A stretch of DNA of 54,428 bases from Tubiluchus corallicola (taxonomy: Eukaryota; Animalia; Priapulida), in NCBI GenBank assembly GCA_030141605.1, contig JAQGDQ010001219.1:1-54428 (forward strand), given 5' to 3'. How positions within the stretch are numbered: the stretch's first letter is position 1; each line of letters begins with the position of its first letter. Of this stretch, positions 7,600 to 29,902 are shown in pieces. The notes beneath the pieces are model-generated. The model was not told the origin of the DNA, ran no database searches, and saw only the letters and a program-made list of their open reading frames with translations. The position numbers were made by a program, and so were the translations under genes.

Positions 7600-9258
7600 A
7601 TGTGCAAACACACTCTCCAGAATCGTTTGGCAAAGCTGGAAGATCTCACATTAAAGTTCTCGGAGCGTGGTATGACAGCTGAAGCAGACGAAGCAACAAT
7701 AAAAGCAGCAGACCAGTACTTGGAGGAAGATAACGAATTCCTTGGCATGGTATCTCAAGTTACTTTTTTGTTAGATGAATGTATTACTAAGTTTTCTGTA
7801 AAAAATGTTAAAAGGGATTTAACTGATGAGTTTCACACTGTTTCTGAGATACCTCATAGTCGTGCAGTTGATAAAAAACCTACTGTTGTTCATGCGGCTG
7901 CGTCCGCATCTCAATTTACTGATAATGACTCACCTGTTGCTCCGCCCCGTCGTAAGAGAAATACTAGTCTTGCCCCCATCACGCCAACTAGTGGTAACCT
8001 TGTACAGTCACGCAGTTATGTTAAACTGCCAAAATTCGAACTGAAATCATTTTCTGGGCAGATTTTAGAATGGCGTGAATTTTGGGATGCGTTCAAAACT
8101 ATGGTTCATGATCACCCAGATTTAGAAAATATTCAAAAATTTCAGTATTTGAAGAGCAAGCTTACAGGTCCTGCTCTTAGTGCAGTAGAAGGTTTTTCAC
8201 TCAGTAATGAAAACTATTTGCAAGCGTTAGATGTTTTAAGAAGCCGTTTTGGCAAAGAACAAAGCATTATTAATGTACATTATAAAGCTTTGGCACATCT
8301 TGAAAAATCCGGAGAAAATGCTAAATGTCTTAGGAAATTTCAAGATAGTCTTGAGTTGCACTTGCGAAGTTTGGAGGCAGTGGGTGAATGCGTTGACAGC
8401 CGTGTTATTATCCCATTAGTATTAGAAAAATTACCACGTTCAGTAGTGCAACAAATGCGCATTACAATGGACCCTGATAGCGCTTGGTCAGTTTCAGATA
8501 TAAGACAACGTCTTAATCGCCACATTCTTACTTTAGAAGCGGTTGAAAATGAAACAGCTGCCTCCAGCTTTCAGCAACCATTCTCTAAGGCTAATGAGAG
8601 ATTTCCTAAGAAGTTTGTAAGTGCATCAAGGCACGAAACTGTTCTTGGCGCTTCAGATAAGCAAAGCTCCGCCCACACGCCACAACGTAAAAACGTTAGT
8701 GCACATTCTGATTATCCAGCACGCAATTGTATTTTTTGTAAAGGCCCACATTGGGCAGATCAGTGTGGCAATTTTGCTACAGCTAGAGAGAGGAAGAGAC
8801 TTCTGAAAAATCGTTGTTTTATTTGTCTAAGAGAAAATCATCAAGCTCACCAATGTAGATCAGGCAGAAGCTGTTATTTCTGCCATAAAAATACTCATCA
8901 CCGTAGTTTGTGCACAGAGCAATTTCCAGATAAAAATCGAGAAGCAACACTAGCTTGTTCACCCAGTTTAAGTTTGTATTCTAGTAATGAACAGGTTGTC
9001 ATGCAAACAGCACTCGTTCGTGTTAGTCATCCTGTTTCTCACAAGACTGTTACAATTCGAGCCTATCTTGATTGTGGTTCTCAGTCCAGCTATATTAGTG
9101 CTAGGCTGGCTAATTTGCTGAATGTTCCTAAGGGCACTTCTGAAGTGCTTCAAGTAGCTACATTTGCAAGTAAAAATGTTAGGCAAATTTCTTGCTATCA
9201 TACATACCTCAGATACATCATAATACCTTCTACAATAAGACGCCATCTTGTGAGATAA
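7600..9258 (+). CDS. BEL/Pao Gag (DUF1759-type, three CCHC knuckles) plus start of aspartic protease; disrupted
   Basis: KLPKFELKSFSGQILEWREFWDAF; CIFCKGPHWADQC, CFICLRENHQAHQC, CYFCHKNTHHRSLC; AYLDCGSQSSYIS. The same frame extends up to ATG 7414 across a single TAG at 7588-7590. Codons after 9208 are foreign sequence. Confidence 0.9.
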   Translation: MCKHTLQNRLAKLEDLTLKFSERGMTAEADEATIKAADQYLEEDNEFLGMVSQVTFLLDECITKFSVKNVKRDLTDEFHTVSEIPHSRAVDKKPTVVHAAASASQFTDNDSPVAPPRRKRNTSLAPITPTSGNLVQSRSYVKLPKFELKSFSGQILEWREFWDAFKTMVHDHPDLENIQKFQYLKSKLTGPALSAVEGFSLSNENYLQALDVLRSRFGKEQSIINVHYKALAHLEKSGENAKCLRKFQDSLELHLRSLEAVGECVDSRVIIPLVLEKLPRSVVQQMRITMDPDSAWSVSDIRQRLNRHILTLEAVENETAASSFQQPFSKANERFPKKFVSASRHETVLGASDKQSSAHTPQRKNVSAHSDYPARNCIFCKGPHWADQCGNFATARERKRLLKNRCFICLRENHQAHQCRSGRSCYFCHKNTHHRSLCTEQFPDKNREATLACSPSLSLYSSNEQVVMQTALVRVSHPVSHKTVTIRAYLDCGSQSSYISARLANLLNVPKGTSEVLQVATFASKNVRQISCYHTYLRYIIIPSTIRRHLVR

Positions 9259-10100
9259 CTTTCAGTTTTAACTATTTATGCTTTTATAACGAGCGTCTTT
9301 GTGTTAGTCTAATAATGAGTCGGTCTCATACAACTTGGCCTAGAACAGAATTTAGATTTTTAATAATTTCTTAAATAATTTACCTAATTAGATGAGCTCT
9401 TAGCGGTCTGCACCACTGGCATCACAAAATAGTCATGGTACATTCAGGCTGTCTGACTCATTTTGCATTTAGAACTATTCCTGTAGAAAACTGTTGTATA
9501 AAGTTGTAAACCTGTCCACTTTACTGAATGTGAACAGCCAATGAGAACTAGTTTTTTTGCATTTCAATTTGGATTTTGCAAACTGATCTAAATTTACATT
9601 AGATTATTTTACAAATTTTCTCTGATGCAGCACTAATTCTGACTAATTCTAACGTTTATGACTAAAATTTTGTAAATATCTAAACTTATGGTTAGTATGT
9701 TAATAAAATAAACAGATTTTATTGTAATGGTTATTTTACCTGTGCTGAGGAGTACAGCACTCTTATAAAAATACTAACAGCAGTTGATGATAATTTGTGA
9801 TAGGCATTTTCACTTCGCTAACAGTTTTATATTCACGCCTGACGTCTTTTTTCGGAATAAAGTCATTTTTAAACATAGAAATACTTCTTCACTTGAAAAA
9901 CGGAAATAATGCGCTGTTGCCAGTCTCACTTTTGAGAGTTCTTGATCAATATATGGATCACGGATCGACTGTTTTCTCTGAATTCAAATATTAAGCTCGA
10001 TTAAAATGATTCCGTATTTTTTACAGACAATGAAAAACATTTATAGTTAAAAATTACACAACTTTATTAAAACTTTTACATTATAAAAGTTAAAATCATG

Positions 10101-10139
10101 CCAAACGTTTCGACAGGCTGGCGCTGTCATCATCAGTGG
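10101..10139 (-). ncRNA. Minimal type I hammerhead ribozyme motif (Penelope-type)
   Basis: Reverse complement = CCA CTGATGA T GACAG cgccagc CTGTC GAAAC GTT TGG. Confidence 0.8.
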
Positions 10140-11152
10140 TAAATTTACAAACATACAACCAGTTTATATAGGCAGAGCCTATTATGGCACTAATTAAGTA
10201 GTTAACAGAAGGCAAATAGGTAATAATAAAGCAGGCCAGAAGAAAAGAAATTGATACAGTAACAAATAGCTAAGTGTTTGAAAATAAACTTAAAGGAATT
10301 GAGCTGCTTTGTACATTAAAAGAAGGATTATTAGGGTATATAGATAAACTTCCTTTTCTTAATAAGTTCCAGTTATTTGTATATCTGTATTTGTTAATTA
10401 AAAAACGTCTAACACATTTTCATTAACACAAGAGCTAAAATATCATTGGCTGTTCATAAGGTTAAAAATTTTGGGATTAATCGAGCCCAAGTAGTGATGA
10501 CATCACAACTGAACATATTTTTCAACAGCACAAGCATTCCATGAGCGTGTTGCATGTGCTTGCGAAAGCAGAAATAAAAGTGCACAATGCTACAGTAACT
10601 GTACAACATTTTTCGTGATATACAAAAAGTCCGCAAATTTTGTTTAAGTTTAGAATTCAAATTTTAAATCTACCGCTATGCTCACACACGAGCTCTCGAA
10701 CGTGTGTGCCACATCACAATTGAACCATATCTAGAGTTGGAGGCACTAGTCGAGATGGAGACGCTTTTGCCCACCTCACTAACGAATTATCGAAATGCAT
10801 GCAGAAGGTTAGAAGTAATTTACGTGAATATGAAATTACGTTTCTGGTGTAATAATTCTTGGACGTAAGTCATTCTTGAAGGAACAGTATGTTCCCTTTC
10901 AATAATTTGAAGATTAGATAGTTTTGTGCCATAGCTTAAGATAGGGTCCAGTTCTCGTTTAAGCCAAGGATGTTATTGGGAAGAGGTCCATTTCACATAT
11001 TTATCAGCTTGTCTGTCCTGTTACAGTTTATTTGCACAACAGAACGAAATTTTTCAACATTTTTACATTAAGTGAATGAGAGCACTATTGTTTCTATGAA
11101 TTTCAAATTGATATTTATTTAGAAATATTAAGATTGTAAGTGTTGTAAATAC

Positions 11153-11351
11153 CGGTTTATAAATCCATTGTCTTTCTTTGGGATTCTCTTCCAAATATCT
11201 TTTGAACGCCACCCTTCTGGGCTGGTAAGATAAACGTAAGAGGTACGAAGCTAAAATCTTCTGTTCCGTATTTGCCTCTTAGAAATTTGATGTTTCTCCA
11301 GAAACCGTCCTTCTGGCAAGTTTCTTTTCCTGATCCGGGAAAATGGTTGTG
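11153..11351 (-). pseudogene. Tubulin-tyrosine-ligase-like (TTLL4/5-type polyglutamylase) single-exon fragment, frameshifted
   Basis: HNHFPGS...KDGFWRN...FSFVPLTFILP / KRYLEENPKERQWIYKP; AG and GT flanks; same 199 nt as 18503-18701. Confidence 0.8.
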
Positions 11352-11508: not shown

Positions 11509-11547
11509 CCAAACGTTTCGACAGGCTGGCGCTGTCATCATCAGTGG
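11509..11547 (-). ncRNA. Minimal type I hammerhead ribozyme motif (Penelope-type)
   Basis: Same core as 10101-10139: CTGATGA, stem II GACAG/CTGTC, GAAAC-GTT, stem I CCA/TGG. Confidence 0.8.
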
Positions 11548-12471
11548 TAAATTTACAAACATACAACCAGATTATATAGACAGAGCCTATTATGGCACTA
11601 ATTAAGTAGTTAACAGAAGGCAAATAGGTAATAATAAAGCAGGCCAGAAGAAAAGAAATTGATACAGTAACAAATAGCTAAGTGTTGGATGTTTCGTTTT
11701 TCACTTAAAGTAGTAAATTGGTCGTACTTGTTGCACACGGCATTCACCAAATTCACTACGAAATTCACCAGCAGTGCCAGAAACGTCTACAATTCCATAG
11801 CAACCACCATTTCGTACGGTTATTAAGGTGTTTTTGTAGAAATTGGATAAAAACAAAGGTCAACTCTAGTCTAGTTTTTCGTTACGCAATTATTTAACGT
11901 GAATTATCTCAGCTTAGAAATACCATAAAGCGATGAACTTGGCATCAAAATGATCCTCATGAAATGGAGTTTCATAATATGTGAATAACTAAAAAAGCTG
12001 ATCTTTCAACAGATTTGCACTGCAAGCATCCATATAGATTAAATTCTTATTTGGATGGTTTTCTTTCCTGTTCGTTGACCTGTTGAGGTCATACGCCTTG
12101 ATTTGTTGAGATATTTGTTTTACCGGAACCATTCGGTAACTATATAAAGTACACTCGCTTTGAAGCAATTAATTGTAATTAATTAATCACCCGACTACGG
12201 GAGCTTCGGTTGCGTCGATAGGGCAGTGATATCTTCCCGCACGACCTTGAACCACGAAATATGCGTCGTGTTATAAATCTTTATCCCCCTAGTTGACAAG
12301 CAGGCTTCCACAATAAGCCGTCTCAATGTGAATAACTCTATGTATAGATCCTTTATGCAGTAAATTCAAGGTGCAAGCTGAGTGAGTCATCATAGCTGAA
12401 CGGCATAATCTTCGTTCAGAATCTAATCTATTATGATTAATCTAATTTCGAATTTTCTATTGATTAATTCC

Positions 12472-13079
12472 TTATTTCAAAATAAATTCATAACATATTT
12501 CTTCGATAGTCACCCTATGGAGGATTCTCAGTCCAAACTCTTCTGGTGGGTATTGAGTAGCGGGACTTGCTATGTGAGCTAGAGCCAAGTTGTCAGAAAT
12601 GATAAAATCCCCAGCTTCCCACTTATGCGAGTAAATAAACTTTCCATTTTCTCTCGTAATTTCCTTATATTATCTCTTATATTCCTTATATAATGAATAT
12701 CTCTTATTATCGCTTCAGTTTCTAACATGTCTGTCAGTCGTTCTTGGGGCGTCCCTTTGTCCCATAAAAACAGTTCCGTATGACCAAGCCGAAGACATAA
12801 CACCGTCTCATTTGTAACTGGATGCGAGTAGACCACTGGATGCTCCACTTTTACTACATTAAAGTGCTTGCGCAAATGAAGTCTTTCCCATGTTTTTCTC
12901 CTTTCTCTATCAAGTCCCTTAACCAGATCATTCAGGGCAACATACATCGTATCTCCATCTTTTGGCACAGAAATAATATGTAAGAGGGCATAGCTGAACG
13001 GTTTTGGCATGTATGTGCCGTCAATGTGCCAACCCTCGTTTCCAAAGTTCATTAGGCCTTCATCCGAATAATTGGAAAC
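12472..13079 (-). pseudogene. TauD/TfdA-family 2OG-Fe(II) dioxygenase copy, frameshifted
   Basis: Near-identical to 21415-21996 (WHIDGTY motif) but 26 nt longer owing to an insertion near 12667-12693. Confidence 0.85.
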
Positions 13080-13116
13080 TTTTGTAGAAGATGAAGATTA
13101 GGATTAGGAGTAGGAG

Positions 13117-13330
13117 TAGGACAGAACCCAGAGTGAGATCAGGACTATGACTGTCTTTGTATATTATGAATAATTTCGTTTATATAGACTATACACAAGA
13201 AAGGTCCTAGGATAGAACCCAGAGTGATATCAGGATCATGACTGTCATTGTATATTATGAATAATGTCGTTTATATAGACAAGAAACGAGAAAGGGCCTA
13301 GGATAGACCCCAGAGTGATATCAGGGCCAT
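13117..13330 (-). repeat. ~90-bp minisatellite, ~2.3 copies
   Basis: Reverse complement of units at 20982-21377. Confidence 0.9.
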
Positions 13331-14180
13331 AATAATGGCCGACCCAGCTCGCCCAGAAGACATTATTCTGTATCTTTTCTTAAGCTCAGCAACCCCAGCT
13401 CTTCCTGAGTCCCCATTCCACAGGCACCTGGGTCTGTCAATTTTATGATCTTTGATCCTCGCCTAAGAAATAGAGTGATCATGAATGCAATTTGTCTTCT
13501 CTGATTTCTGGGTTTTCTTGATTTTATTGCCTACCCAAATATATAACTTTTCATATCACCTCTGGGGGATCAAAACCCTTGAATTTACATCCATGAATGC
13601 TTCTAGATCATCTTTTTCATGTTCCCAGTGATTATGAAGATGCTTTGTAAACTCTAAGCATCAGCATCAGATACATCATTATACCTCCTACAATAAGACG
13701 CCATCTTGTGAGATAACTTTCAGTTTTAACCATTTATGCTTTTATAACAAGCATCTTTGTGTCAGTCTAATAATGAAACTTAGACTGACAATTATTATAA
13801 TAATTTCTTAAATAATTTACCTAATTAGATGAGCTCTTAGCGGTCTGCACCACTGGCACCGCAAAATAGTCATTGTGCATTCAGGCTTTCTGACTCATTG
13901 TGCAATTAGAACTATTTCTGTAGAAAACTGTTGTAAAAAGTTGTAAACCTGTCTACATTTCTGAACGTGAACAGCTAATGAGAACTAGTTTATTGCATTT
14001 CAATTTGGATTTTGCAAACTGATCTAAATTTACATTAGATTATTTTACAAATTTTCTCTGATGCAGCTCTAAATTAAAACTTTAATTGCATCGTCTTACT
14101 GCTCACATGAAGTCCTTTAAATTTTAGATAGATGCTGCCAAATGTAGCAAGAATCTGTGGATCGAAATTGATAGAAATAA

Positions 14181-14385
14181 CTAGGTGTTTGAAAATAAAC
14201 TTATAGGAATTGAACGCCTTTATTCATTAGTAGAAGGCTTATCAGGGTATAAAGATAAACTGTCTTTTCTTAATAAGTTCCAGTTATTTGTATGTGTCTG
14301 TATTTGACAATTAGAAAACGTCTAACGCATTTTCATTTCGAGAAATGAGATGCACAAACTGCTAAAACATCGTTGGCTGTTCATG
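14181..14385 (-). mobile_element. Older, diverged Penelope-like GIY-YIG C-terminal remnant
   Basis: Translates as ...TNNWNLLRKDSLSLYPDKPSTNE*RRSIPISLFSNT*, homologous to 19476-19583. Confidence 0.6.
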
Positions 14386-14792
14386 CTCACCATACACCAC
14401 GTGAATTCGGTTACAGTAGCAACATTTGAAGAAAAAGTTGCTTCCGAGTCCTGCTCAGTCGAATCCCAGCTGAGGTCAAGAACTTCCGAACTCTCCTCAC
14501 AAGGTACAAGCTCTGTAAAAAGTTATCAATGAATAAATAATTATGTCAGAATCTGTTGTGATGAAATTTTAATTAATAAAATAATCATCTTGATGGTGTT
14601 AGTAATAAACACAGTTTATATTTTACAGTATTATTTATCACATTGTGCTTATTAATGAATATTTGAACCTATCTATATAACATTTACATATTCGGATCAA
14701 TGCAGATTATATATTAGAAAAATATGTAAGAATTTAAATAGGACATCTTTTGCAAAAGCTTGATTAGTGAACTCTCAAACTTAGCATAGAAA

Positions 14793-15310: not shown

Positions 15311-17790
15311 AGATTTTAATCTATTATTTAATTATCAGGAACACTTTTGTAGTGTTAATTGTGTTAAAATCTAAACTTTTAATCCGACTTGAAAATTGGG
15401 TTGTATATGAAAAATCATCCTGTCTTCCTTTAATCCTCACAACATCTTATTCCATGCACTATTTTTGATGCAGGTGTGGTACATTCCACAGGGCTGTCCA
15501 GTACCTATCCAACCCACCTTTAATAAAGCAATTATACACCTAGGCGTACGTCTGGGAAGCCTAATTATGGCAGACTTGAAGGCTCTAATTATTACACTAT
15601 GAAGCATCGTAGGATGTAATTCACCTTTGATGATTTAGTGAAATCTCAACACATGGACCCACTATTCACCCAACTGTCTCTCCACAGGTCGTAGGGTGCT
15701 TTTGTACAACAGACAACCCTTTGACTAATGGCTCGCCCGAACTGGAGTCATTAGAATTGTTATACCACTGTTTAGCAGAAGCGTGCAATACAAGTCGTTT
15801 ACAGCGAAAGAATATCTTCTATTTTAGTCAGTAAGCACATAAATTTCTTTCTAATATTGGAGGAAACGCTTCATGGGGGGAGGGGGGAGTAGGTATCTCC
15901 CTCCCTCTCTCCCTATCTCTAATCAATTAGGGCGTGGCTCATTAAGATATTTTTTCTTACCGTTTACTAAAGCCCTTTCAGCTTCGTCAACCTTCCTGGG
16001 AAGAAAACTGACATGGTATTGACCATCAGTGGTCAGCATTGTCACCACAACTGTCAGAACCTGAAAAATTAATAATTTTGTAGGAAGTGAAAATTAACTA
16101 AAATGAATAAATTACAATTGAAATAAATTATGATTTGATTATAATATTACAAATATAATTACACATTTTACAAAATATAGTTGCATAATTTCACTTACTT
16201 TAACAAAGAAACATAAAGATATTGTAATGGCCCGTGAATACAGGGGCAAACCATAGGAGCCAATTAATGGTAGTCGCTGCTAAGTTCGATCAGTTCCTTG
16301 GCCGAGCTAGAGGTACTAACCGACTGCCCACTAAAGAAACAGACAATAGCTGAGCGTAGGCAGACTCTACGGGGGCTCTACCTAAATAGCATGGATTCTT
16401 TTGTGGTGGGATTGATTAAAAACAGGCTTTCCATCTATACCTCAAAAACCAAACTGTAACCAGTCGAATAAATGACAAAATATTAAGTTTAATGACACAA
16501 ACAAAAACAGTTGTATAATTGAGCTTTTTGTAAACAATGGAAATTAGTAATAAGCAAAAGTAAATCTGAAAAATGCTACTAAACAGCATGGCATGAAATA
16601 AATGCAATGACAAAACATACAAAAATCATACAGTGTTCCTACCTATTTAAAGGGGTTCTACTTACTCTACCAGCCACCCCAAAATGCGTACGCTAGCATA
16701 GTATATTCTCCAGACAAATGTAGTTTGTGGTCATAGTCCTTTAGAACGACTAAAGTGTGGTTCAAACTTCATCTAACGGGTTCACAACTCCCGCAGTAAC
16801 GACGCAAAAAGTCTGAGAGAAACGTAGTTAAATGTTTAACATAAGTCTATCAAAAGAGTGACGTGTGAGCGGAGCAGTAGGCACACGTGCGTTCGGAAAT
16901 TCACATCAAAACAAGTTCTCCCTCTGGCCAATTAACGATAACGTAAGTAAACAGGTACCTTTGCCTTCCGGTTTATTAGCATAAAGTTCCTACCCGGGCA
17001 GTGACGAGTTCCCATGCGATGGACTGTCGAGCTGGGTACCTTTCCAACTGCACGACGGTGCTTTCATATGATCCGAAACGACATCTTCCCGGCAAGGTAA
17101 GATCAGCAAAGCCATGTAAACCAATGAGTGGACATCTTCCACCACCACAAATAGATCATTAGCTTAATAAGAAATGCAATAAACTAGTTCTCATTAGCTG
17201 TTCACGTTCAGAAATGTAGACAGGTTTACAACTTTTTACAACAGTTTTCTACAGAAATAGTTCTAATTGCACAATGAGTCAGAAAGCCTGAATGCACGAT
17301 GACTATTTTGCGGTGCCAGTGGTGCAGACCGCTAAGAGCTCATCTAATTAGGTAAATTATTTAAGAAATTATTATAATAATTGTCAGTCTAAGTTTCATT
17401 ATTAGACTGACACAAAGATGCTTGTTATAAAAGCATAAATGGTTAAAACTGAAAGTTATCTCACAAGATGGCGTCTTATTGTAGGAGGTATAATGATGTA
17501 TCTGATGCTGATGTTTAGAGTTTACAAAGCATCTTCATAATCACTGGGAACATGGAAGAGATGATCTAGAAGCATTCATGGATGTAAATTCGAGGGTTTT
17601 GATCCCTCAGAGGTGATATGAAAAGTTATATATTTGGGTAGGCAATAAAATCAAGAAAACCCAGAAATCAGAGAAGACAAATTGCATTCATGATCACTCT
17701 GTTTCTTATGTGAGGATCACAGATCATGAAATTGACAGATGCAGGTGCATGTGGAATGGGGACTCAGGAAGAGCTGGGTCGGCCATTATT

Positions 17791-18449
17791 ATGGCCCTGA
17801 AATCGCTCTGGGCTCTATTCTAGGCCCTTTCTTTTTTTGTCTATATAAACAACATTATTCATAATATACAGTGACAGTCATGGTCCTGATATCACGCTGG
17901 GCTCTATCCTAGGCCCTTTCTTTTTCTTGTCTATATAAACGACATTATTCATAATATACAATGACAGTCATGGTCCTGATATCAGTCTGGGCTCTATCCT
18001 AGGCCCTTTCTTTTTCTTGTCTATGTAAACGACATTATTCATAATATACTATGAGAGTCATGGTCCTGATATCACTCTGGGCTCTATTCTAGGCCCTTTC
18101 TTTTTTTGTCTATATAAACGACATTATTCATAATATACAGTGACAGTCATGGTCCTGATATCACGCTGGGCTCTATCCTAGGCCCTTTCTTTTTCTTGTC
18201 TATATAAACGACATTATTCATAATATACAATGACAGTCATGGTCCTGATATCAGTCTGGGCTCTATCCTAGGCCCTTTCTTTTTCTTGTCTATGTAAACG
18301 ACATTATTCATAATATACTATGAGAGTCATGGTCCTGATATCACTCTGGGCTCTATCCTAGGCCCTTTCTTTTCTTTGTCTATATAAACGACATTATTCA
18401 TAATATACAGTCACCGCCATGGTCCTGATATCACTCTGGGCTCTATCCT
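17791..18449 (+). repeat. ~90-bp minisatellite, ~7.3 copies
   Basis: gacattattc recurs at 17941, 18031, 18120, 18210, 18300 and 18390. Confidence 0.96.
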
Positions 18450-18502
18450 TCCTATTGATGACAGAATTTTGTGAAAAAACGGAGACGTTTTCTGCATTTC
18501 AG

Positions 18503-18701
18503 CACAACCATTTTCCCGGATCAGGAAAAGAAACTTGCCAGAAGGACGGTTTCTGGAGAAACATCAAATTTCTAAGAGGCAAATACGGAACAGAAGATTT
18601 TAGCTTCGTACCTCTTACGTTTATCTTACCAGCCCAGAAGGGTGGCGTTCAAAAGATATTTGGAAGAGAATCCCAAAGAAAGACAATGGATTTATAAACC
18701 G
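18503..18701 (+). pseudogene. TTLL4/5-type tubulin polyglutamylase single-exon fragment, frameshifted
   Basis: ttttctgcatttcAG|CACAACCATTTTCCC...TGGATTTATAAACCG|GTattt. The NHFPG...KD.LWRN...F.P.TF.LP...WI.KP motifs are typical of TTL-family proteins; 199 nt, with a frame change near LPAQK/RRVAF. Confidence 0.85.
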
Positions 18702-19099
18702 GTATTTACAACACTTACAATCTTAATATTTCTAAATAAATATCAATTTGAAATTCATAGAAACAATAGTGCTCTCATTCACTTAATGTAAAAATGTTGA
18801 AAAATTTCGTTCTGTTGTGCAAATAAACTGTAACAGGACAGACAAGCTGATAAATATGTGAAATGGACCTCTTCCCAATAACATCCTTGGCTTAAACGAG
18901 AACTGGACCCTATCTTAAGCTATGGCACAAAACTATCTAATCTTCAAATTATTGAAAGGGAACATACTGTTCCTTCAAGAATGAATTACGTGCAAGAATT
19001 ATTACACCAGAAACGTAATTTCATATTCACGTAAATTACTTCTAACCTTCTGCATGCATTTTGATAATTCGTTAGTGAGGTGGGCAAGAGCGTCTCCAT

Positions 19100-19583
19100 C
19101 TCGACTAGTGCCTCCAACTCTAAATATGGTTCAATTGTGATGTGGCACACACGTTCGAGAGCTCGTGTGTGAGCATAGCGGTAGATTTAAAATTTGAATT
19201 CTAAATCTAAACAAAATTTGCGGACTTTTTATATATCACGAAAAATGTTGTACAGTTACTGTAGCATTGTGCACTTTTATTTCTGCTTTCGCAAGCACAT
19301 GCAACAAGCTCATGGAATGTTTGTGCTGTTGAAAAATATGTTCAGTTGTGATGTCATCACTATTTGTGCTCGATTAATCCCAAATTTTTAACCGCATGAA
19401 CAGCCAATGATGTTTTAGCTCTTGTGTTAATGAAAATGTGTTAGACGCTTTTTAATTGTCAAATACAGATATACAAATAACTGGAACTTATTAAGAAAAG
19501 GAAGTTTATCTATATACCCTAATAATCCTTCTTTTAATGTACAAAGCAGTTCAATTCCTTTAAGTTTATTTTCAAACACTTAG
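19100..19583 (+). mobile_element. Decayed Penelope-like element GIY-YIG endonuclease C-terminus
   Basis: HVRELVCEHSG near 19149; NNWNLLRKGSLSIYPNNPSFNVQSSSIPLSLFSNT* at 19476-19583 matches the recalled PLE C-terminal pattern (L.IKESL.I....P.LN.Q..S.PL.LF); followed ~130 nt later by a hammerhead. Copies at ~10268-10750(-) and ~27800-28194. Confidence 0.65.
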
Positions 19584-19713
19584 CTATTTGTTACTGTATC
19601 AATTTCTTTTCTTCTGGCCTGCTTTATTATTACCTATTTGCCTTCTGTTAACTACTTAATTAGTGCCATAATAGGCTCTGCCTATATAAACTGGTTGTAT
19701 GTTTGTAAATTTA

Positions 19714-19752
19714 CCACTGATGATGACAGCAGCAGCCTGTCGAAACGTTTGG
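19714..19752 (+). ncRNA. Minimal type I hammerhead ribozyme motif (Penelope-type)
   Basis: CCA CTGATGA T GACAG cagcagc CTGTC GAAAC GTT TGG; predicted cleavage after 19749; TATATAAA at 19683 and AATAAA at ~19785. Confidence 0.8.
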
Positions 19753-20981
19753 CATGATTTTAACTTTTATAATGTAAAAGTTTTAATAAAGTTGTGTAAT
19801 TTTTAACTATAAATGTTTTTCATTGTCTGTAAAAAATACGGAATCATTTTAATCGAGCATAATATTTGAATTCCGAGAAAACAGTCGATCCGTGATCCAT
19901 ATATTGATCAAGAACTCTCAAAAGTGAGACTGGCAACAGCGCATTATTTCCGTTTTTCAAGTGAAGAAGTATTTCTATGTTTAAAAATGACTTTATTCCG
20001 AACAAAAGACGTCAGGCGTGAATATAAAACTGTTAGCGAAGTGAAAATGCCTATCACAAATTATCATCAACTGCTGTTAGTATTTTTATAAGAGTGCTGT
20101 ACTCGTCAGCACAGGTAAAATAACCATTACAATAAAATCTGTTTATTTTATTAACATACTAACCATAAGTTTAGATATTTACAAAATTTTAGTCATAAAC
20201 GAGAGAATTAGTCAGAATTAGTGCTGCATCAGAGAAAATTTGTAAAATAATCTAATGTAAATTTAGATCAGTTTGCAAAATCCAAATTGAAATGCAAAAA
20301 AACTAGTTCTCATTGGCTGTTAACATTCAGTAAAGTGGACAGGTTTACAACTTTATACAACAGTTTTCTACAGGAATAGTTCTAAATGCAAAATGAGTCA
20401 GACAGCCTGAATGCACCATGACTATTTTGTGATGCCAGTGGTGCAGACCGCTAAGAGCTCATCTAATTAGGTAAATTATTTAAAGAAATTATTAAAAATC
20501 TAAATTCTGTTCTAGGCCAAGTTGTATGAGACAGACTCATTATTAGACTAACACAAAGACGCTCGTTATAAAAGCATAAATAGTTAAAACTGAAAGTTAT
20601 CTCACAAGATGGCGTCTTATTGTAGAAGGTATTAAATGTATCTGATGCTGATGTTTAGAGTTTACAAAACTTCTTCATAATCACTGGGAACATGGAAAAG
20701 ATGATCTAGAAGCACTGAAGGATGTAAATTCGAGGGTTTTGATCCCTCAGAGGTGAAGTGAAAAGTTATATATCTGGGTAGGCAATAAAATCAAGAAAAC
20801 CCAGAAATCAGAGAAGACAAATTGCATTCATGATCACTCTGTTTCTTATGTGAGGATCACAGATCATGAAATTGACAGATGCAGGTGCCTGTGGAATGGG
20901 GACTCAGGAAGAGCTGGGGTTGCTGAGCTTAAGAAAAGATACAGAATAATGTCTTCTGGGCGAGCTGGGTCGGCCATTATT

Positions 20982-21377
20982 ATGGCCCTGATATCACTCT
21001 GGGGTCTATCCTAGGCCCTTTCTCGTTTCTTGTCTATATAAACGACATTATTCATAATATACAATGACAGTCATGATCCTGATATCACTCTGGGTTCTAT
21101 CCTAGGACCTTTCTTGTGTATAGTCTATATAAACGAAATTATTCATAATATACAAAGACAGTCATGGTCCTGATATCACTCTGGGTTCTATCCTAGGACC
21201 TTTCTTGTGTATAGTCTATATAAACGACATTATTCATAATATACAATGACAGTCATGGTCCTGATATCACTCTGGGCTCTATCCTAGGACCTTTCTTGTG
21301 TATAGTCTATATAAACGAAATTATTCATAATATACAAAGACAGTCATAGTCCTGATCTCACTCTGGGTTCTGTCCTA
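20982..21377 (+). repeat. ~90-bp minisatellite variant, ~4.3 copies
   Basis: Same unit as 17791-18449 with variant ...cctaggacctttcttgtgtatagtctatataaacg. Confidence 0.93.
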
Positions 21378-21441
21378 CTCCTACTCCTAATCCTAATCTT
21401 CATCTTCTACAAAAGTTTCCAATTATTCGGATGAAGGCCTA

Positions 21442-21996
21442 ATGAACTTTGGAAACGAGGGTTGGCACATTGACGGCACATACATACCAAAATCGTTCAG
21501 CTATGCCCTCTTACATATTGTTTCTGTGCCAAAAGATGGAGATACGATGTATGTTGCCCTGAATGATCTGGTTAAGGGACTTGATAGAGAAAGGAGAAAA
21601 ACATGGGAAAGACTTCATTTGCGCAAGCACTTTAATGGAGTAAAAGTGGAGCATCCAGTTGTCTACTCGCATCCAGTTACAAATGAGACGGTGTTATGTC
21701 TTCGGCTTGGTCATATGGAACTGTTTTTATGGGACAAGGGGACGCCCCAAGAACGACTGACAGACATGTTAGAAACTGAAGCGATAATAAGAGATATTCA
21801 CAAGGAAATTACGAGAGAAAATGGAAAGTTTATTTACTCGCATAAGTGGGAAGCTGGGGATTTTATCATTTCTGACAACTTGGCTCTAGCTCACATAGCA
21901 AGTCCCGCTACTCAATACCCACCAGAAGAGATTGGACTGAGAATCCTCCATAGGGTGACTATCGAAGAAATATGTTATGAATTTATTTTGAAATAA
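21442..21996 (+). CDS. TauD/TfdA-family 2-oxoglutarate/Fe(II) dioxygenase, N-terminally truncated, no introns in this segment
   Basis: HxD motif WHIDGTY, GDTMYVAL, HPVVYSHPVT, HKWEAGDFIISDNLALAH...RILHRVTI. Homology extends to VSN at 21415; in-frame stop at 21394. Confidence 0.85.
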   Translation: MNFGNEGWHIDGTYIPKSFSYALLHIVSVPKDGDTMYVALNDLVKGLDRERRKTWERLHLRKHFNGVKVEHPVVYSHPVTNETVLCLRLGHMELFLWDKGTPQERLTDMLETEAIIRDIHKEITRENGKFIYSHKWEAGDFIISDNLALAHIASPATQYPPEEIGLRILHRVTIEEICYEFILK

Positions 21997-22192
21997 GGAA
22001 TTAATCAATAGAAAATTCGAAATTAGATTAATCATAATAGATTAGATTCTGAACGAAGATTATGCCGTTCAGCTATGATGACTCACTCAGCTTGCACCTT
22101 GAATTTACTGCATAAAGGATCAGAGGTTGGAAGATCATAGAAAACTTATATTATAAACAGAAATTAGAAGTCAGATAACGACAGTTGAACTT

Positions 22193-23239
22193 TGTAAAGT
22201 AGGAAGGGCTATTAGCCCACATTGCATAGCTCAGACTTGGTACCCTCGAACTTCCGAGTAAAATCGCCAATTGTCAAAAGCTATTGTTCATGAGCAGAGT
22301 CGTAGTAAGACACAAGTGTCGTCAGTTCAATTAATAATTAATCTAAAGACAGAAGCTATATGTCATTAGGGCTAATACAATAGAAGTCTTGTCCGAGTTG
22401 CGATAGATGTACCAAGTTAAGTTGTTGTGGCGCTGATCGTGTCACTGACGATGTCATGTCAACTGACCCTGCATTCAAAAGGAGAGTGCTGAGAGTTTTT
22501 GGCGGTTGTTGGTTGCCGGGTGCTGGAAGTCGAGGGTCGTGGGCGTAGCTGTCGTGTCGAGGTCTGTTGCAGAGAAATTCTTGAGGTAGGAGATTGTACT
22601 ATAGCTCAGCGTGGAGAAGAGTTCTGCGTAGTTTGATCAATCAAACCTCTGGGGCTTAGACGTCTCTACTAGGATTTCGGATCTGGCCAATTACAGTCGT
22701 AAGACCACAAGTTAAGTAACATTACAATCTATTCAGTAATTGCTAAAACAGATCGAGCGAATTTATATTAACTTTTACTTTGTATGAAGTAACGATTGTT
22801 GAGTAACAGATAAACTTTGTTAACTTGAACTGTAAAACTTCAGCTATCAACAGTAGTTGTGAGCGCCAAAAGCGCATAGGTAAACAAAATTGTTAATCGC
22901 TTTATCAATCAGTGGATGTTTAGTAATTGTTCAATAAATCTATATATTACTGATACTTATTTGTTCGATGCACTTTGTAAGATTGAGAGAATACGTAAGT
23001 GCATACTCGTAAAGACACTGTCCGCTGCACGAATCTATACATAGAGTTATTCACATTGAGACGGCTTATTGTGGAAGCCTGCTTGTCAACTAGGGGGATA
23101 AAGATTTATAACACGACGCATATTTCGTGGTTCAAGGTCGTGCGGGAAGATATCATTGCCCTATCGACGCAACCGAAGCTCCCGTAGTCGGGTGATTAAT
23201 TTATTACAATTAATTGCTTCAAAGCGAGTGTACTTTATA
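22193..23239 (+). mobile_element. Possible solo LTR remnant inside the TauD unit
   Basis: Starts TGTAAAGTA and ends TACTTTATA (9-bp inverted ends, 1 mismatch); ~1.05 kb with internal AATAAA. No target-site duplication found. Confidence 0.3.
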
Positions 23240-23329
23240 TAGTTACCGAATGGTTCCGGTAAAACAAATATCTCAACAAATCAAGGCGTATGACCTCAAC
23301 AGGTCAACGAACAGGAAAGAAAACCATCC

Positions 23330-23690: not shown

Positions 23691-23834
23691 CATCAAACAC
23701 TTAGCTATTTGTTACTGTATCAATTTCTTTTCTTCTGGCCTGCTTTATTATTACCTATTTGCCTTCTGTTAACTACTTAATTAGTGCCATAATAGGCTCT
23801 GTCTATATAATCTGGTTGTATGTTTGTAAATTTA

Positions 23835-23873
23835 CCACTGATGATGACAGCGCCAGCCTGTCGAAACGTTTGG
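23835..23873 (+). ncRNA. Minimal type I hammerhead ribozyme motif (Penelope-type)
   Basis: CCA CTGATGA T GACAG cgccagc CTGTC GAAAC GTT TGG; predicted cleavage after 23870. Confidence 0.8.
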
Positions 23874-25591
23874 CATGATTTTAACTTTTATAATGTAAAA
23901 GTTTTAATAAAGTTGTGTAATTTTTAACTATAAATGTTTTTTATTGTCTGTAAAAAATACGGAATCATTTTAATCGAGCATAATATTTGAATTCAGAGAA
24001 AACAGTCGATCCGTGATCCATATATTGATCAAGAACTCTCAAAAGTGAGACTGGCAACAGCGCATTATTTCCGTTTTTCAAGTGAAGAAGTATTTCTATG
24101 TTTAAAAATGACTTTATTCCGAACAAAAGACGTCAGGCGTGAATATAAAACTGTTAGCGAAGTGAAAATGCCTATCACAAATTACCATCAACTGCTGTTA
24201 GTATTTTTATAAGAGTGCTGTACTCCTCAGCACAGGTAAAATAACCATTACAATAAAATCTGTTTATTTTATTAACATACTAACCATAAGTTTAGATATT
24301 TACAAAATTTTAGTCATAAACGTTAGAATTAGTCAGAATTAGTGCTGCATCAGAGAAAATTTGTAAAATAATCTAATGTAAATTTAGATCAGTTTGCAAA
24401 ATCCAAATTGAAATGCAAAAAAACTAGTTCTCATTGGCTGTTCACATTCAGTAAAGTGGACAGGTTTACAACTTTATACAACAGTTTTCTACAGGAATAG
24501 TTCTAAATGCAAAATGAGTCAGACAGCCTGAATGCACCATGACTATTTTGTGATGCCAGTGGTGCAGACCGCTAAGAGCTCATCTAATTAGGTAAATTAT
24601 TTAAGAAATTATTAAAAATCTAAATTCTGTTCTAGGCCAAGTTGTATGAGACCGACTCATTATTAGACTAACACAAAGACGCTCGTTATAAAAGCATAAA
24701 TAGTTAAAACTGAAAGTTATCTCACAAGATGGCGTCTTATTGTAGAAGGTATTATGATGTATCTGATGCTGATGTTTAGAGTTTACAAAACTTCTTCATA
24801 ATCACTGGGAACATGGAAAAGACGATCTAGAAGCACTGAAGGATGTAAATTCGAGGGTTTTGATCCCTCAGAGGTGAAGTGAAAAGTTATATATCTGGGT
24901 AGGCAAGAAAATCAAGAAAACCCAGAAATCAGAGAAAACAAATTGCATTCATGATCACTCTGTTTCTTATGTGAGGATCACAGATCATAAAATTGACAGA
25001 TGCAGGTGCATGTGGAATGGGGACTCAGGAAGAGCTGGGTCGGCCATTATTATGACCCTGAAATCACTCTGGGCTCTATTTGCTGCTTCAGAAAATTAGA
25101 AACGTCACATCACATCCAATGCAGCAAAGACGGGAAGCAAAACAATGCATTTTTTACTTCACTGTTGCAAAGCAAAGCCAACTTAACCGTTGGTATTATT
25201 CAGAATTAAAGCTACAAATGTACTTCTGGTTGTTGCTTATTCCTTTTCAAAATATTTTATTATTTCCGGTAAACATGAAACATCAATCTTTCGCTTTTGT
25301 TGGGTAGAGGGTCCCACTAACAATTTTCAAATTGGGCCCCGCACTTCCTAGCATCGGCCCTGTTTGAGTTCAATGATTTTGCAAACATTTACCTGGAATG
25401 TTATTGACCCAGTAACTATTCTTCATTAATCTGCACTTACTCGACCAGAAACCACTTAGAACGGCGTGTATGCCTAATGTTTAACATTAGAATAAGCACT
25501 ATAATTTTATAGTTGCCATACTGTAATGCTGTCGTACTGTAATTACGGTTACACGTGGTGCTTATGTAGTTGACCATTCTTTTAAATCGTA

Positions 25592-26737
25592 ATGTTGAGA
25601 TACATACAAATTGGTTTTATTGCATTAGCTGCTACATTTTCAATGATAGTTTTCAGTCTCCACAAGTTTACAGAAGTAGATTACACGACGTCATCTATGC
25701 ATGTGGCTCTGGCAGTTTGCGGTGGTGCAGAATCTACTTATGTGGATGATTTTACCGTATTAGTGAAATCAGTTTTTCTTGTGTCCACCGAAGTCATTCA
25801 TTACCATGTTATAGTCGACAGTGACGAAATGGAGCATAAACTAAAGGGCTTTCTAGACAAATTTAATGACACACAAGCGAGCAAAGTAAATTTGTACAGA
25901 CCTTGGTTTCCCCCTGGTGAAAATTATACTCATTGGCTTCAAAATGGCGATGGAAAAAAACCATGTGGATCTGCTTGGTTATTCCTTCCTCAGATCCTGC
26001 CAAAATATGTGAAAAGGATTGTTAGGTTTGACATGGACGTCATTGTGGTACGACCTCTAAAGGAATTGTGGCGCCATTTTGATCACATGACATCAAATCA
26101 GATGATGGGAATCGCATTTGACTTTTCTGGTGAACACACGCATCGCATTATGGAGCTTTTCCACAAACCACATGGGGTTTCTCAATTGACTGCTTCTAAT
26201 AACACTTTACTTAACCCTCTAAGTGGTGGAAGGAACAAAGGTCTTAATACTGGAGTTGCCCTAATCGACTTGGAAAAACTACGGCAAACTGACTGGATGA
26301 CAGATATTGTTGATATTTATCACTCGACTAGCAATTGTTCAACGGACAAATGGACGTTTCCTGCCTGCACGCCAGAGCAAAATGCATGTGACGTCTATTT
26401 TCACGAGAATCCATCGAGACTGTATTTCCTCCCATGCGAGTGGAACTTTTGGTGGGGTGTGGCAGTCTTTGGCGATTACTGTCAGTCAGCTCAACGGGAC
26501 GAAATCGGTATATTGCACGGTGCCGCGGGGAATTTCCACAATCGAGGAACCCGCGTGCGATGCCAATGGATATTTGAAGGTGTTTACAATTTATACAAAA
26601 GTCTAAAAGGTAATGAAACAATGGATTTCCTTGTGGGGAAACTAAGGAAATTTCGCGAAGAAAGTAAACAAAACGCAGAAAAAAGAGTGGATAGTGAAAA
26701 ATGCTTATCAATAGTAGACAAAATTATAACAGTTTAA
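25592..26737 (+). CDS. Glycosyltransferase family 8, glucoside/xyloside xylosyltransferase-like (GXYLT/XXYLT type), intronless, 381 aa
   Basis: N-terminal type II membrane anchor; MHVALAVCG, VLVKSV, FLPQILP, DxD motif FDMDV, GLNTGVALIDLEKLR, LYFLPCEWNF, GILHG. Uninterrupted from ATG to TAA. Confidence 0.88.
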   Translation: MLRYIQIGFIALAATFSMIVFSLHKFTEVDYTTSSMHVALAVCGGAESTYVDDFTVLVKSVFLVSTEVIHYHVIVDSDEMEHKLKGFLDKFNDTQASKVNLYRPWFPPGENYTHWLQNGDGKKPCGSAWLFLPQILPKYVKRIVRFDMDVIVVRPLKELWRHFDHMTSNQMMGIAFDFSGEHTHRIMELFHKPHGVSQLTASNNTLLNPLSGGRNKGLNTGVALIDLEKLRQTDWMTDIVDIYHSTSNCSTDKWTFPACTPEQNACDVYFHENPSRLYFLPCEWNFWWGVAVFGDYCQSAQRDEIGILHGAAGNFHNRGTRVRCQWIFEGVYNLYKSLKGNETMDFLVGKLRKFREESKQNAEKRVDSEKCLSIVDKIITV

Positions 26738-26911
26738 CAATTTATTGTTTATAAGCACTCATTACAATAAGAAACTAATTATCAATAATGCTGCATAAGA
26801 TGATGAACGACACAACTAAATTGTAACAAATTCGCCTAAAACCTAAAAAGTTCACTACAAATTATTTTCAAAATCACAAAATCTCACTCGTAAAAAGTAT
26901 TAATCTCCAAA

Positions 26912-27155
26912 AAACGACATTATTCATAATATACAGTGACAGTCATGGTCCTGATATCACGCTGGGCTCTATCCTAGGCCATTTCTTTTTCTTGTCTATA
27001 TAAACGACATTATTCATAATATACAATGACAGTCATGGTCCTGATATCAGTCTGGGCTCTATCCTAGGCCCTTTCTTTTCTTTGTCTATATAAACGACAT
27101 TATTCATAATATACAGTGACCGCCATGGTCCTGATATCACTCTGGGCTCTATCCT
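26912..27155 (+). repeat. ~90-bp minisatellite, ~2.7 copies
   Basis: Resumes mid-unit (aaacgacattattc) after the GT8 segment. Confidence 0.93.
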
Positions 27156-27208
27156 TCCTATTGATGACAAAATTTTGTGAAAAAACGGAGACGTTTTCTG
27201 CATTTCAG

Positions 27209-27407
27209 CACAACCATTTTCCCGGATCAGGAAAAGAAACTTGCCAGAAGGACGGTTTCTGGAGAAACATCAAATTTCTTAGAGCCAAATACGGAACAGA
27301 AGATTTTAGCTTCGTACCTCTTACGTTTATCTTACCAGCCCAGAAGGGTGGCGTTCAAAAGATATTTGGAAGAGAATCCCAAAGAAAGACAATGGATTTA
27401 TAAACCG
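27209..27407 (+). pseudogene. TTLL4/5-type exon fragment, third copy
   Basis: Same 199-nt exon, same splice flanks and same frameshift as 18503-18701. Confidence 0.85.
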
Positions 27408-28213
27408 GTATTTACAACACTTACAATCTTAATATTTCTAAATAACTATCAATTTGAAATTCATAGAAACAATAGTGCTCTCATTCACTTAATGTAAAAA
27501 TGTTGAAAAATTTCGTTCTGTTGTGCAAATAAACTGTAACAGGACAGACAAGCTGATAAATATGTGAAATGGACCTCTTCCCAATAACATCCTTGGCTTA
27601 AACGAGAACTGGACCCTATCTTAAGCCATGGCACAAAACTATCTAATCTTCAAATTATTAAAAGGGAACATACTGTTCCTTCAAGAATGAATTATGTGCA
27701 AGAATTATTACACCAGAAACGTAATTTCATATTCACGTAAATTACTTCTAACCTTCTGCATGCATTTTGATAATTCGTTAGTGAGGTGGGCAAGAGCGTC
27801 TCCATCTCGACTAGTGCCTCCAACTCTAAATATGGTTCAATTGTGATGTGGCACACACGTTCGAGAGCTCGTGTGTGAGCATAGCGGTAGATTTAAAATT
27901 TGAATTCTAAACTTAAACAAAATTTGTGTCTTATTGTATATCACGAAAAATGTTGTACAGTTACTGTAGCATTGTGAAATTTTATTTCTGCTTTCGCAAG
28001 CACATGCAACACGCTCATGGAATGCTTGTGCTGTTGAAAAATATGTTCAGTTGTGATGTCATCACTACTTGGGCTCGATTAATCCCAAAATTTTTAACCT
28101 TATGAACAGCCAATGATGTTTTAGCTCTTGTGTTAATGGAAATGTGTTAGACGTTTTTTAATTGTCAAATACAGATATACAAATAACTGGAACTGTACCA
28201 GTTTGTAAATTTA

Positions 28214-28252
28214 CCAGTGATGATGACTGCAGCAGCCTGTCGAAACGTTTGG
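28214..28252 (+). ncRNA. Degenerate hammerhead motif (core C3 changed to G, stem II mismatch)
   Basis: CCA gTGATGA T GACtG cagcagc CTGTC GAAAC GTT TGG. Confidence 0.6.
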
Positions 28253-29902
28253 CATGATTTTAACTTTATAATGTAAAAGTTTTAATAAAGTTGCGTAACT
28301 TTTAACTATAAATGTTTTTAATTGTCTGTAATAAAAATACAGAATCATTTTAATCGAGCATAAGATCTGAAATCAGAAAAAAATCCGATTCGTGATCCAT
28401 ATATCGATCAAGAGCTTTTAAAAGTGAGACTGGCAACAGTGCATTATTTCCGTTTTTCAAATGAAGAAGAAGTATTTCTACTTTTAAAAATGACTTGAAA
28501 ATTTCTGATGTTAGCATTTTTACAAGAGTGCTATACTCCTCAGAACAGGAAAATAACCACTACAATCAAATCTCTGTTTATTTTACTAATATAGTAACCA
28601 TAAGCTTTAAACATTTACAAAATTTTATTCATAAACTGTCATTATTGTCTTATTAGATGTCTCATTGAGAGAGTGGCTAACCTCGATAACTTATAGTTCT
28701 TTCACCACCCTTTATCCACTAATCAATAATCACTTTTGCACTTTGTAATATTATTGTATGTTGTACAGGTTTATAAATCTCTTAGTTGTGTATTTTGCCA
28801 TTTCAAAAATGGTGATAAACTAATAAACTTATTTACTTGCTTACTTAAACATCATCACACTGCCCACTGGGCAACCCCTATAAGCTGCAGCTTCCCTGGT
28901 TTCCCTAAAGCATACATAATCTAATGTTGTTGTTTATGTTAACAAATTGACAAGCGGACACATTTCTACAATTTACCGTCTGTTAAACTGCACGTGGGGT
29001 ACATTTTGCTGAGTCCAGCATTAAGTAATGTAAAATTACTATTACTTAATCTATGTAAAATATTGCATAGAGGGTGCCCAAAAAGAATCTTTTCGTATCA
29101 TATTAGAATTTCTATTGCAATGGGAAGAGATACAAGAACCACAAGAACAAATAGAAATAAATGTTCAATATAAACAACTTAAACAAACATTGACTAAGAG
29201 AATAGGTAATTTTATAACAAATTCTATTGCAAGATTGGTGACCCGGGAAACACATGCAGTTCAAGCTTTAGGCTTAGAAATAGGTTTTTCACATTTAGAT
29301 ATTGCTGGTTGTGAGTGGGGAAATTGTGTTTTTTAAGTATTTATTTTTGGTGAGTATGCTTGTATGAATGTTTGAGTTGGTGTGTGCGCGTGCGTGCGTG
29401 TGTGTGTTTGTTTGTGTGTATGTTATGATTATTTGTGTTTTGTGGTTCACTAATTTGTTGTTTATAGGTTGTATGTAAGTGTGAGTGCTAGTGATATATT
29501 TAGCAGCTTTTATATAAAAATTTGCTGAGTTGTTTAGTATTGTAGTGTGTGCTTGTGTTAGTGAGATTGTTTGTATCATAGGGTTTGTATGGGTGATTGG
29601 ACTTGAGGCTGCTACAAAGCTTTAACTTAATAGTGTTAATAAGTTGGGAATAAGCTGTTGTGGTTGTTGGTGGGTAACAGTTGTTTTGGTGGTCCCTGCT
29701 CTAGTGAGTTCCTGTTGTGGCCAAGTTTTTTATGCGCCATTGCATATTCTTGTAGTTAAAAGGTACTACATCGAACAAATTATATATGTTAAAAGACATA
29801 CATGAATGGCAAGGAAAAGTTGCACGCTTTGCAAAAGTGCAAAAAATCCAGTAAATAAAAATCAGCTACACGTGTGAAAGGTGCTTCAAAAAACATAGGC
29901 AA

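Follow-up and report, generated by a model that had tools for sequence, protein, structure and literature searches.

A Penelope-type hammerhead stub as a probable passenger in a local duplication mosaic of Tubiluchus corallicola

Do hammerhead ribozymes that recur through a stretch of host DNA mark the borders of mobile units, or can they simply be carried along when DNA is duplicated around them? The question is raised by a 54,428-nt stretch of the priapulid Tubiluchus corallicola (assembly GCA_030141605.1, contig JAQGDQ010001219.1, positions 1 to 54,428 of the forward strand; this whole stretch is called the window below). It contains five hammerhead motifs, against none expected from 100 shuffles, with cleavage-site spacings of 4121, 4379 and 1408 nt, among pieces of TauD, GT8 and TTLL genes. 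A preliminary description reported these motifs and spacings correctly, and read them as ribozyme-delimited cassettes with interchangeable host-gene cargo, that is, as self-cleaved RNAs copied in trans by an active Penelope reverse transcriptase (RT). We favour, with a probability of about 0.6, a local duplication mosaic of variable copy number with a truncated Penelope repeat, here called the stub, as a passenger. The hammerhead in the stub was likely carried along while the patchwork duplicated and recombined as DNA. Coordinates and labels are given in Table 1.

Judged by its sequence, the ribozyme is a Penelope-type minimal hammerhead. Metazoan Penelope-like elements (PLEs) carry a minimal hammerhead without helix III and with an extra base before stem II (PMC4209133). 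H1-H4 share with it the type I core (CUGANGA...GAAA-NUH), the absence of helix III, the extra base between positions 9 and 10.1, the G10.1-C11.1 pair and the palindromic 15.2-16.2 positions, AACGUU being palindromic. An Rfam scan of the window returned four weak unrelated matches and no hammerhead family. The H1-H4 cores are 98-100% identical to one another and hence recent duplicates, so that their intactness is no sign of selection. H5, in a stub copy with 19 differences in 205 nt, departs from the PLE core at C3 (C3G) and has a mismatch in stem II. The hammerhead fold has an energy of -6.3 kcal/mol, while the minimum-energy fold, at -10 to -11 kcal/mol, is another structure. Minimal hammerheads cleave poorly in vitro (PMC4209133). 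In PAc, the only Penelope assayed, C3G abolished cleavage, cleavage was dispensable for insertion in vitro, and reportedly no RNA ends were found at the cut site (PMC11167929).

Metagenome contigs scanned for the core plus stem II yielded 17 loci (L001-L017) with one repeat common to all. L001 has an 814-aa open reading frame (ORF) that matches RVT_1 (E 8e-7) and GIY-YIG (E 0.005), both below the cut-off; the hammerhead motif lies about 260 nt past the ORF stop, and a second, truncated one at the start of the contig. Since the same core and stem II here flank an element with RT and GIY-YIG, the window motif is of Penelope type, as the preliminary description had proposed. L001 is another organism's element, whose resemblance to the window extends over only 42-59 nt, and the 17 loci resemble the window solely around the motif and in simple repeats. 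As an observation in its own right, L001:50-2879 is apparently a complete PLE, and many stubs, 5'-shortened and inverted ones, occur in L002-L017.

Within the window, the hammerhead sits in a dispersed repeat stub with hundreds of genomic copies. Depth was taken from contigs of four DNA runs (X1-X3 from one sample, possibly the window's own, and X4 from a second), compared with a region that includes 21400-26905; it is a rough guide and not a copy number, and overlapping contigs inflate sums. Two further runs under that species label, X5 and X6, contained next to none of the sequence words and were left uninterpreted, 0 contigs of X6 matching 18360-18890. Single-copy-like contigs in X1 have a depth of 174-198 (176-198 for exact ones), whereas the summed bins of the stub reach 150,000-240,000 and fall to about 2,700 by 23976, a step of two orders of magnitude. 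Loose contig ends (61 contigs) indicate that the family continues upstream of 23693, like the 19394-19571 copy, and the 14162-14386 piece begins at the same 5' base as the 19394 copy. The stub is about 450 nt long, and its 3' end lies some 70-105 nt past the cut site, close to where PAc reverse transcription starts (111-118 nt into the ORF, with the cut site at 26; PMC11167929). Strand-switching joints inside the family (4 of the 15 joints shown, of 48) support a resemblance to inverted pseudo-long terminal repeats (pLTRs), which supports the preliminary description in this respect. Of the 4378 X1 contigs matched to 21400-26905, 3083 have less than 95% identity, which points to a stub family of some age. 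Penelope coding sequence was not found: no GIY-YIG or RT family matched in six frames of 19200-21000, tblastn of a Penelope ORF against the whole window gave a best E of 2.0, and no GIY-YIG 3' end or ORF start overlapped the repeat stub. PLE hammerheads likewise occur mostly as single motifs from truncated elements in large families, but here one stub has multiplied with its flanks, and RT and GIY-YIG sequence are gone. A second very high-copy repeat is present as pieces at 23383-23486 and 34427-34498 (summed depth about 350,000 in X1).

The DNA around the stub behaves differently, with backbone and cargos at roughly 1-9 times the single-copy depth. Near-exact long contigs in X1 have depths of 1250 for the constant module (module C), 1138-1214 for the TTLL piece, 392 for TauD and 180 for the 5' end of GT8, equal to about 7, 6.5, 2 and 1 times single-copy depth. 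Within the window there are three copies of TTLL, two of TauD, one of GT8, and two full plus two partial close copies of module C, so that similar arrays on two homologues would cover most of the X1 depth, with some copies possibly elsewhere. With a single-copy unit of 4.2-5.0, X4 gives ratios of about 9 for module C, 4 for TTLL and 9 for TauD, and copy number is therefore unequal between the two samples. The X4 TauD lacks the insertion resembling a long terminal repeat (LTR) seen in the window, and is also attached to the minisatellite, judged by matching joint depth (41). Ratios of 1-9 are compatible with a local cluster, but depth carries no positions. The preliminary description had stated that a backbone confined to this locus would speak for ordinary duplication; the depth of the backbone is about what the copies in the window itself would give. 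Taken with the breakpoints and the cargo swap described below, the outcomes it had named against itself were largely those observed.

The strongest evidence for a passenger role comes from the junctions. Flank A follows the hammerhead in all five copies, including the 92-93% diverged H5, whereas a fresh Penelope insertion is expected to gain a new flank after its tail (PMC11167929). No insert in the array ends at a pLTR plus tail and then passes into new DNA. The seven junctions examined lie, relative to the cut site, at -177, -48, +156, +451, +465, +896 and +1260; none is at the cleavage site, and none at the stub family's 3' end near +70 to +105. The array itself ends at +896, against a gag-protease ORF of BEL type, and at +451, far beyond the stub end. 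A flush target duplication was found at none of six candidate end pairs, the true ends of which may be eroded. Breakpoints thus do not track the ribozyme, and the idea of cassettes delimited by it is mostly unsupported. Short-homology deletions are seen instead at ATT (the 1408-nt unit), at ATC (the LTR-like insert) and at two GAGCTGGG repeats, with 51 nt lost in between. A 21-nt inverted repeat (15305/17170) had suggested that the 17171 breakpoint marks a DNA transposon, a reading that was rejected: an old repeat continues across 15296-15314, and the 1.9 kb concerned contain 34 such pairs.

The exchange of cargo probably has a different origin from the one proposed. In an alignment of six copies of module C, U1 and U2 stand against M2 and P0 up to 20774, and U1 and M2 against U2 and P0 from 20868. 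All four combinations occur at the informative sites (a four-gamete pattern), and the switch of partners falls between 20774 and 20868, 1.0-1.1 kb past the ribozyme. The apparent swap of TauD and TTLL between ribozyme units therefore maps to a crossover in module C and is removed by undoing one inversion. Once the M2-U2 inversion is undone, only new-left modules with TauD and old-left modules with TTLL are left, with two TauD units in tandem. Both reciprocal recombinants are present, on opposite arms, as would be expected after a DNA inversion; template switching by an RT could produce one recombinant.

The backbone of about 1.35 kb that had been described as common to the units stood for two of them only. 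Positions 19572-20918 and 23693-25039, in the 4121- and 4379-nt units, are 98.5% identical over 1348 nt, whereas the 1408-nt unit has 334 nt of it and neither the constant module nor the minisatellite. Module C also occurs three times without a preceding hammerhead (13394-14072, 17171-17790 and 31765-32247), the last in a piece (31659-32247) beyond the interval 9209..28635 of the preliminary description. At 28201-32247 the order stub, flank A, alternative flank, module C is still present, with 3 kb between flank A and the alternative flank. Both the backbone and the join at 14162 can be read as deletions of such a segment. Flank A there is about 10% diverged, so this segment would be a relative of the source and not the source itself.

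The cargos are real, unspliced pieces of host genes, as had been claimed (profile matches of E 1e-19 for TauD, 6e-8 for GT8 and 0.002 for TTL, the last below the Pfam cut-off). The TTLL exon is bordered by introns with acceptor and donor, of which 53 nt on the acceptor side (38 nt for TauD), the donor and downstream intron sequence are retained. All three TTLL copies have an identical extra base that shifts the frame, and both TauD copies have the LTR-like insert, so that the cargos are decayed or interrupted; an insert-free form of TauD (joint 21968 to 23267) is found in all four runs. A parent-like TTLL contig (depth 174, X1) lacks the extra base and ceases to align in both introns. It differs from the window exon at 24 of 210 positions (21 listed; 8 silent, 10 changed codons), and the capture is therefore old. 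Relatives of the TauD-like exon in bivalves and a locust are about 50% alike.

GT8 had been placed after the minisatellite as a further cargo. It lies within a minisatellite unit, where it replaces 27 nt, and the 4379-nt unit is therefore a TTLL unit with an insertion. The ORF is related to LARGE1 and XXYLT1, and several paralog-like contigs differ from it by 7-13%. A word-based homolog search returned none of 1094 candidates, while a full HMMER search gave 526 relatives at about 30% identity, which makes it an ordinary divergent GT8. On its own account, the gene at 25592-26737 belongs to a small paralog family with nearest library relatives only about 30% identical. The cargo junctions at 18449, 21377 and 25080 agree to within 4 nt in their phase in the 90-bp unit, beside its CCTAGG palindrome. 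A chance figure of 0.008 for three junctions at one phase was discarded as overstated, because the GT8 junction lies inside unit 1 and only two array ends remain. Other exits from the minisatellite occur in X1 and X4, for example at 18411, and are absent from the window; the 90-bp minisatellite is one member of a small repeat family that has further copies. Module C might also be spliced chimerically to the TTLL and TauD exons.

Mosaic clusters of segmental duplications are shaped by non-allelic recombination and microhomology deletions, and combine modules of different ages, reciprocal recombinants, inversions between inverted copies, exon fragments and copy-number differences between individuals. 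The window has both reciprocal recombinants between paralogous modules and short-homology junctions; it differs from a typical cluster in that one common module is a Penelope stub with a hammerhead. Its history may have begun with an old stub insertion beside flank A, inherited by every copy. A longer segment of stub, flank A, spacer and module C, like that at 28201-32247, would have given the backbone by deletion, and a TauD unit would have been duplicated in tandem. A single inversion, by crossover between inverted copies of module C, would then have exchanged upstream and downstream halves and produced the apparent cargo swap. GT8 presumably entered the minisatellite later, and unequal exchange may continue to alter copy number.

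Several observations fit this duplication history less well. Three stub-family pieces of different age lie within 20 kb, and two separate joins place a stub upstream of module C. The arms are head-to-head, as is often the case in Penelope insertions (PMC3846280, PMC8557442). The un-inverted left arm consists of head-to-tail, hammerhead-spaced units, which reverse transcription of more than one unit would likewise yield, and the internal junctions of a multimeric RNA would retain flank A. TTLL depth corresponds to about 6.5 copies against 3 in the window, and up to 3 could lie elsewhere and not on the other homologue; contig depth is rough, and the sample behind X1-X3 is perhaps that of the window itself. 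The model gives no explanation for the location of both old cargo junctions at one minisatellite phase and 38-53 nt ahead of a splice acceptor.

Part of this would be accommodated if a Penelope RT acting in trans had made the founding cassette or cassettes from read-through RNA ending in the stub, and DNA recombination then multiplied and shuffled them locally. The template would have been TTLL intron-exon-intron-stub, with TauD perhaps added by template switch, as in Adineta. We regard this hybrid history as unlikely, though worth serious consideration. Each of the two old cargos has retained intron sequence and has a stub downstream of it, and the parent-like TTLL exon is located elsewhere with diverged introns. 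A common target could account for the common minisatellite phase. The ATT at the 1408-unit junction is the preferred cut motif of PAc (PMC11167929), which counts for little in AT-rich DNA. There is a precedent in the pLTR mobilisation of Adineta vaga, with a nonribosomal peptide synthetase (NRPS) gene framed by Pen3a, and captured Pen1 spacers (Arkhipova et al. 2013, PMC3846280). There, as here, intron-containing host DNA lies head-to-head between Penelope terminal repeats and Penelope coding sequence is absent, but the paper describes a complete gene, with an 8-bp target duplication and an empty allele. In the window no flush duplication was found (0 of 6 end pairs), every stub has the same flank, and the cargos are single exons and one intronless ORF. 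The sequence on the left side of the stub has an 11-nt inverted match to the beginning of flank A (equalled in 35 of 2000 shuffles), a weak hint that the two flanks were continuous until the stub inserted. With 24 of 210 positions different in the parent-like exon, the event would be old and its traces eroded.

We consider it improbable that a solo Penelope end makes multi-kb host DNA into tandem units spaced by hammerheads, with a Penelope RT still copying their RNA and TauD and GT8 cassettes amplified unequally between individuals. The model of the preliminary description, in which multi-kb 'cargo retrozymes' without RT are excised by the hammerhead, circularised and copied by an active Penelope, is hardly probable, and its view of the units as self-cleaved RNAs copied in trans remained mostly unsupported. 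Four of the five cores are intact, the palindromic AACGUU permits a helix III in a dimer, the TauD units are in tandem, the TauD cassette reaches about 9 times single-copy depth in X4, and a circular-template model has been proposed for PLEs (PMC4209133). The intact cores are, on the other side, those of recent duplicates 98-100% identical, and the older H5 copy has lost C3. Minimal hammerheads cleave poorly in vitro and PAc does not need cleavage (PMC4209133, PMC11167929); the swap maps to module C and not to the ribozyme, backbone depth is low, and the preponderance of contigs under 95% alike in X1 (3083/4378) suggests an old stub family. Metazoan non-LTR retrozymes also have one hammerhead per head-to-tail unit, are non-coding and are related to Penelope (PMC7229834; bioRxiv 10.64898/2026.07.22.740005). 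They are, however, homogeneous tandem repeats of about 300 nt with canonical hammerheads and demonstrated circular RNAs (PMC7229834), whereas the window units are 1.4-4.4 kb long, unequal and mosaic. The Terminons of bdelloid rotifers resemble the window in their hammerhead-marked arrays with host genes between units, but encode an RT, lack an endonuclease and have telomeric repeats right after the hammerhead (review PMC6431247); neither an RT ORF nor such repeats directly after the hammerhead were found at the window hammerheads. Literature searches turned up no description of multi-kb cargo retrozymes; related hammerhead families may be listed in the supplements to PMC4209133 and to the 2026 preprint.

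It is very improbable that module C and the minisatellite form a separate low-copy DNA element of Helentron type, similar to Helentron-associated interspersed elements (HINEs), with a fixed right end that picked up exons and took the stub as passenger. TauD and TTLL each go with a minisatellite variant of their own, both variants stopping at one phase, the further minisatellite exits absent from the window are present in both samples, and oyster HINEs have internal tandem repeats (PMC7492417). HINEs are recognised by subterminal inverted repeats of 11-12 bp and a conserved right flank with a palindrome (PMC7492417); between the ends tested here, the longest perfect inverted match was 6-7 nt, the true element ends being uncertain, and no common right flank was found after the arrays. 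That the array is largely a mis-assembly is scarcely credible: no contig spans any whole stretch compared, but copies differ by 0.3-8% with phased private changes, the junction of minisatellite and TTLL is covered by single contigs with the same start (188 nt in X1, reaching 30 nt into the minisatellite where the bridging rule asks for 31; 319 nt in X4), the passage from stub to flank A is covered by a 251-nt contig in X4, and the depths demand several copies.

Table 1. Features of the mosaic and its left border (positions in the window)
Feature	Position	Strand	Remarks
BEL/Pao-type gag-protease ORF, truncated where the mosaic begins on its left	7591..9208	+	DUF1759 (E 6e-36), DUF1758; junction 9209
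Minimal hammerhead H1	10101-10139	-	core intact; cleavage position 10104
TTLL-like exon copy (frameshifted), 1408-nt unit	11153..11351	-	joins flank A 156 nt past H2 via 3-nt common ATT
Minimal hammerhead H2	11509-11547	-	core intact; cleavage position 11512
Second TauD-like exon copy	12347..13110	-	LTR-like insert internally deleted (ATC); exon with 25-nt insertion
TauD-type minisatellite (2.4 units) and module C, old-type left, TauD-type right (recombinant M2)	13111..14075	-	
Diverged (87-89%) stub piece without hammerhead	14162..14386	-	joined to alternative upstream flank of module C
Old-type module C (P0) and TTLL-type minisatellite (7.3 units)	17171..18449	+	hammerhead absent upstream
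TTLL module	18450..19393	+	53 nt intron, then exon 18503-18701 (one base too long) and a downstream intron that holds an old dispersed repeat
Fullest copy of Penelope-type stub	19394..19850	+	about 450 nt, 3' end approximate; holds H3; 5' boundary common with 14162-14386 piece
Minimal hammerhead H3	19714-19752	+	core intact; cleavage position 19749
Flank A	19851..20214	+	low-copy DNA after stub in all hammerhead copies
Module C, new-type left, TauD-type right (U1)	20215..20981	+	
TauD-type 90/91-bp minisatellite	20982..21377	+	4.4 units
TauD-like dioxygenase exon piece	21378..21972	+	38 nt intron with acceptor, then C-terminal two thirds; N-terminal part absent
TG...CA insertion, solo-LTR-like	21973..23266	+	1294 nt; 4-bp duplication AATA
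5'-shortened stub with H4	23693..23960	+	from sequence comparison and contig depth
Minimal hammerhead H4	23835-23873	+	core intact; cleavage position 23870
Module C, new-type left, TTLL-type right (recombinant U2)	24336..25080	+	
1.83-kb insertion inside a minisatellite unit	25081..26911	+	intact intronless GT8 ORF (25592-26737, 381 aa)
TTLL-type minisatellite (2.7 units) and third TTLL module	26912..28194	+	
H5 in diverged (92-93%) stub remnant, with diverged flank A	28201..28636	+	motif 28214-28252; cleavage position 28249
Alternative upstream flank and left part of module C	31659..32247	+	3 kb past flank A; order as in the backbone

The window contains further repeats and elements. A Gypsy-type LTR element occupies 47178-54428 on the minus strand, with LTRs 99.4% identical over 1072 nt and a 1109-aa ORF with SCAN, zinc knuckle, protease and integrase, followed by an RNase H piece; no match to an RT core was found in it. 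The position of its integrase before RT/RNase H is what we take to be the Gmr1-like order. Pieces of BEL/Pao type lie in opposite orientations at 6863-9208 (gag-protease, plus strand) and 43047-44963 (DUF5641 end, minus strand), and 6863-7078 and 43047-43260, which are 85% alike, may be LTR pieces. Satellite arrays are found at 882-2035 (43-bp units), 3870-5704 (23-bp), 36256-37011 and 38538-40413 (both 32-bp) and 41658-43049 (65-bp); 36071-37011 and 38365-39294 are a 93% duplicate. Members of an old dispersed repeat family, 64-89% identical between copies, lie at 1-436, 10482-10964, 14793-15435, 18890-19359, 27596-28077 and 33706-34161. At 29855-30502 there is a 215-aa coiled-coil ORF with an LVLGDS motif at its end and only weak coiled-coil Pfam matches, presumably resembling a truncated ORF1 esterase of a long interspersed nuclear element (LINE).

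Only the RNA-circle model would be new: if it were true, the 'cargo retrozyme' would be ten times the size of known ones, and the in vivo role of Penelope hammerheads would become testable. If Penelope made the founding cassettes, the locus would add one more case of a capture already described in rotifers. If the local duplication mosaic holds, this is a rearranged locus of an ordinary kind, and no new mobile RNA that carries genes, and the lesson would be that evenly recurring hammerheads alone do not define mobile units, the same 3' flank after every copy being a quick test for passenger motifs. The locus would then stand as a tidy record of a rearrangement cluster that collects exons and one intact glycosyltransferase gene.

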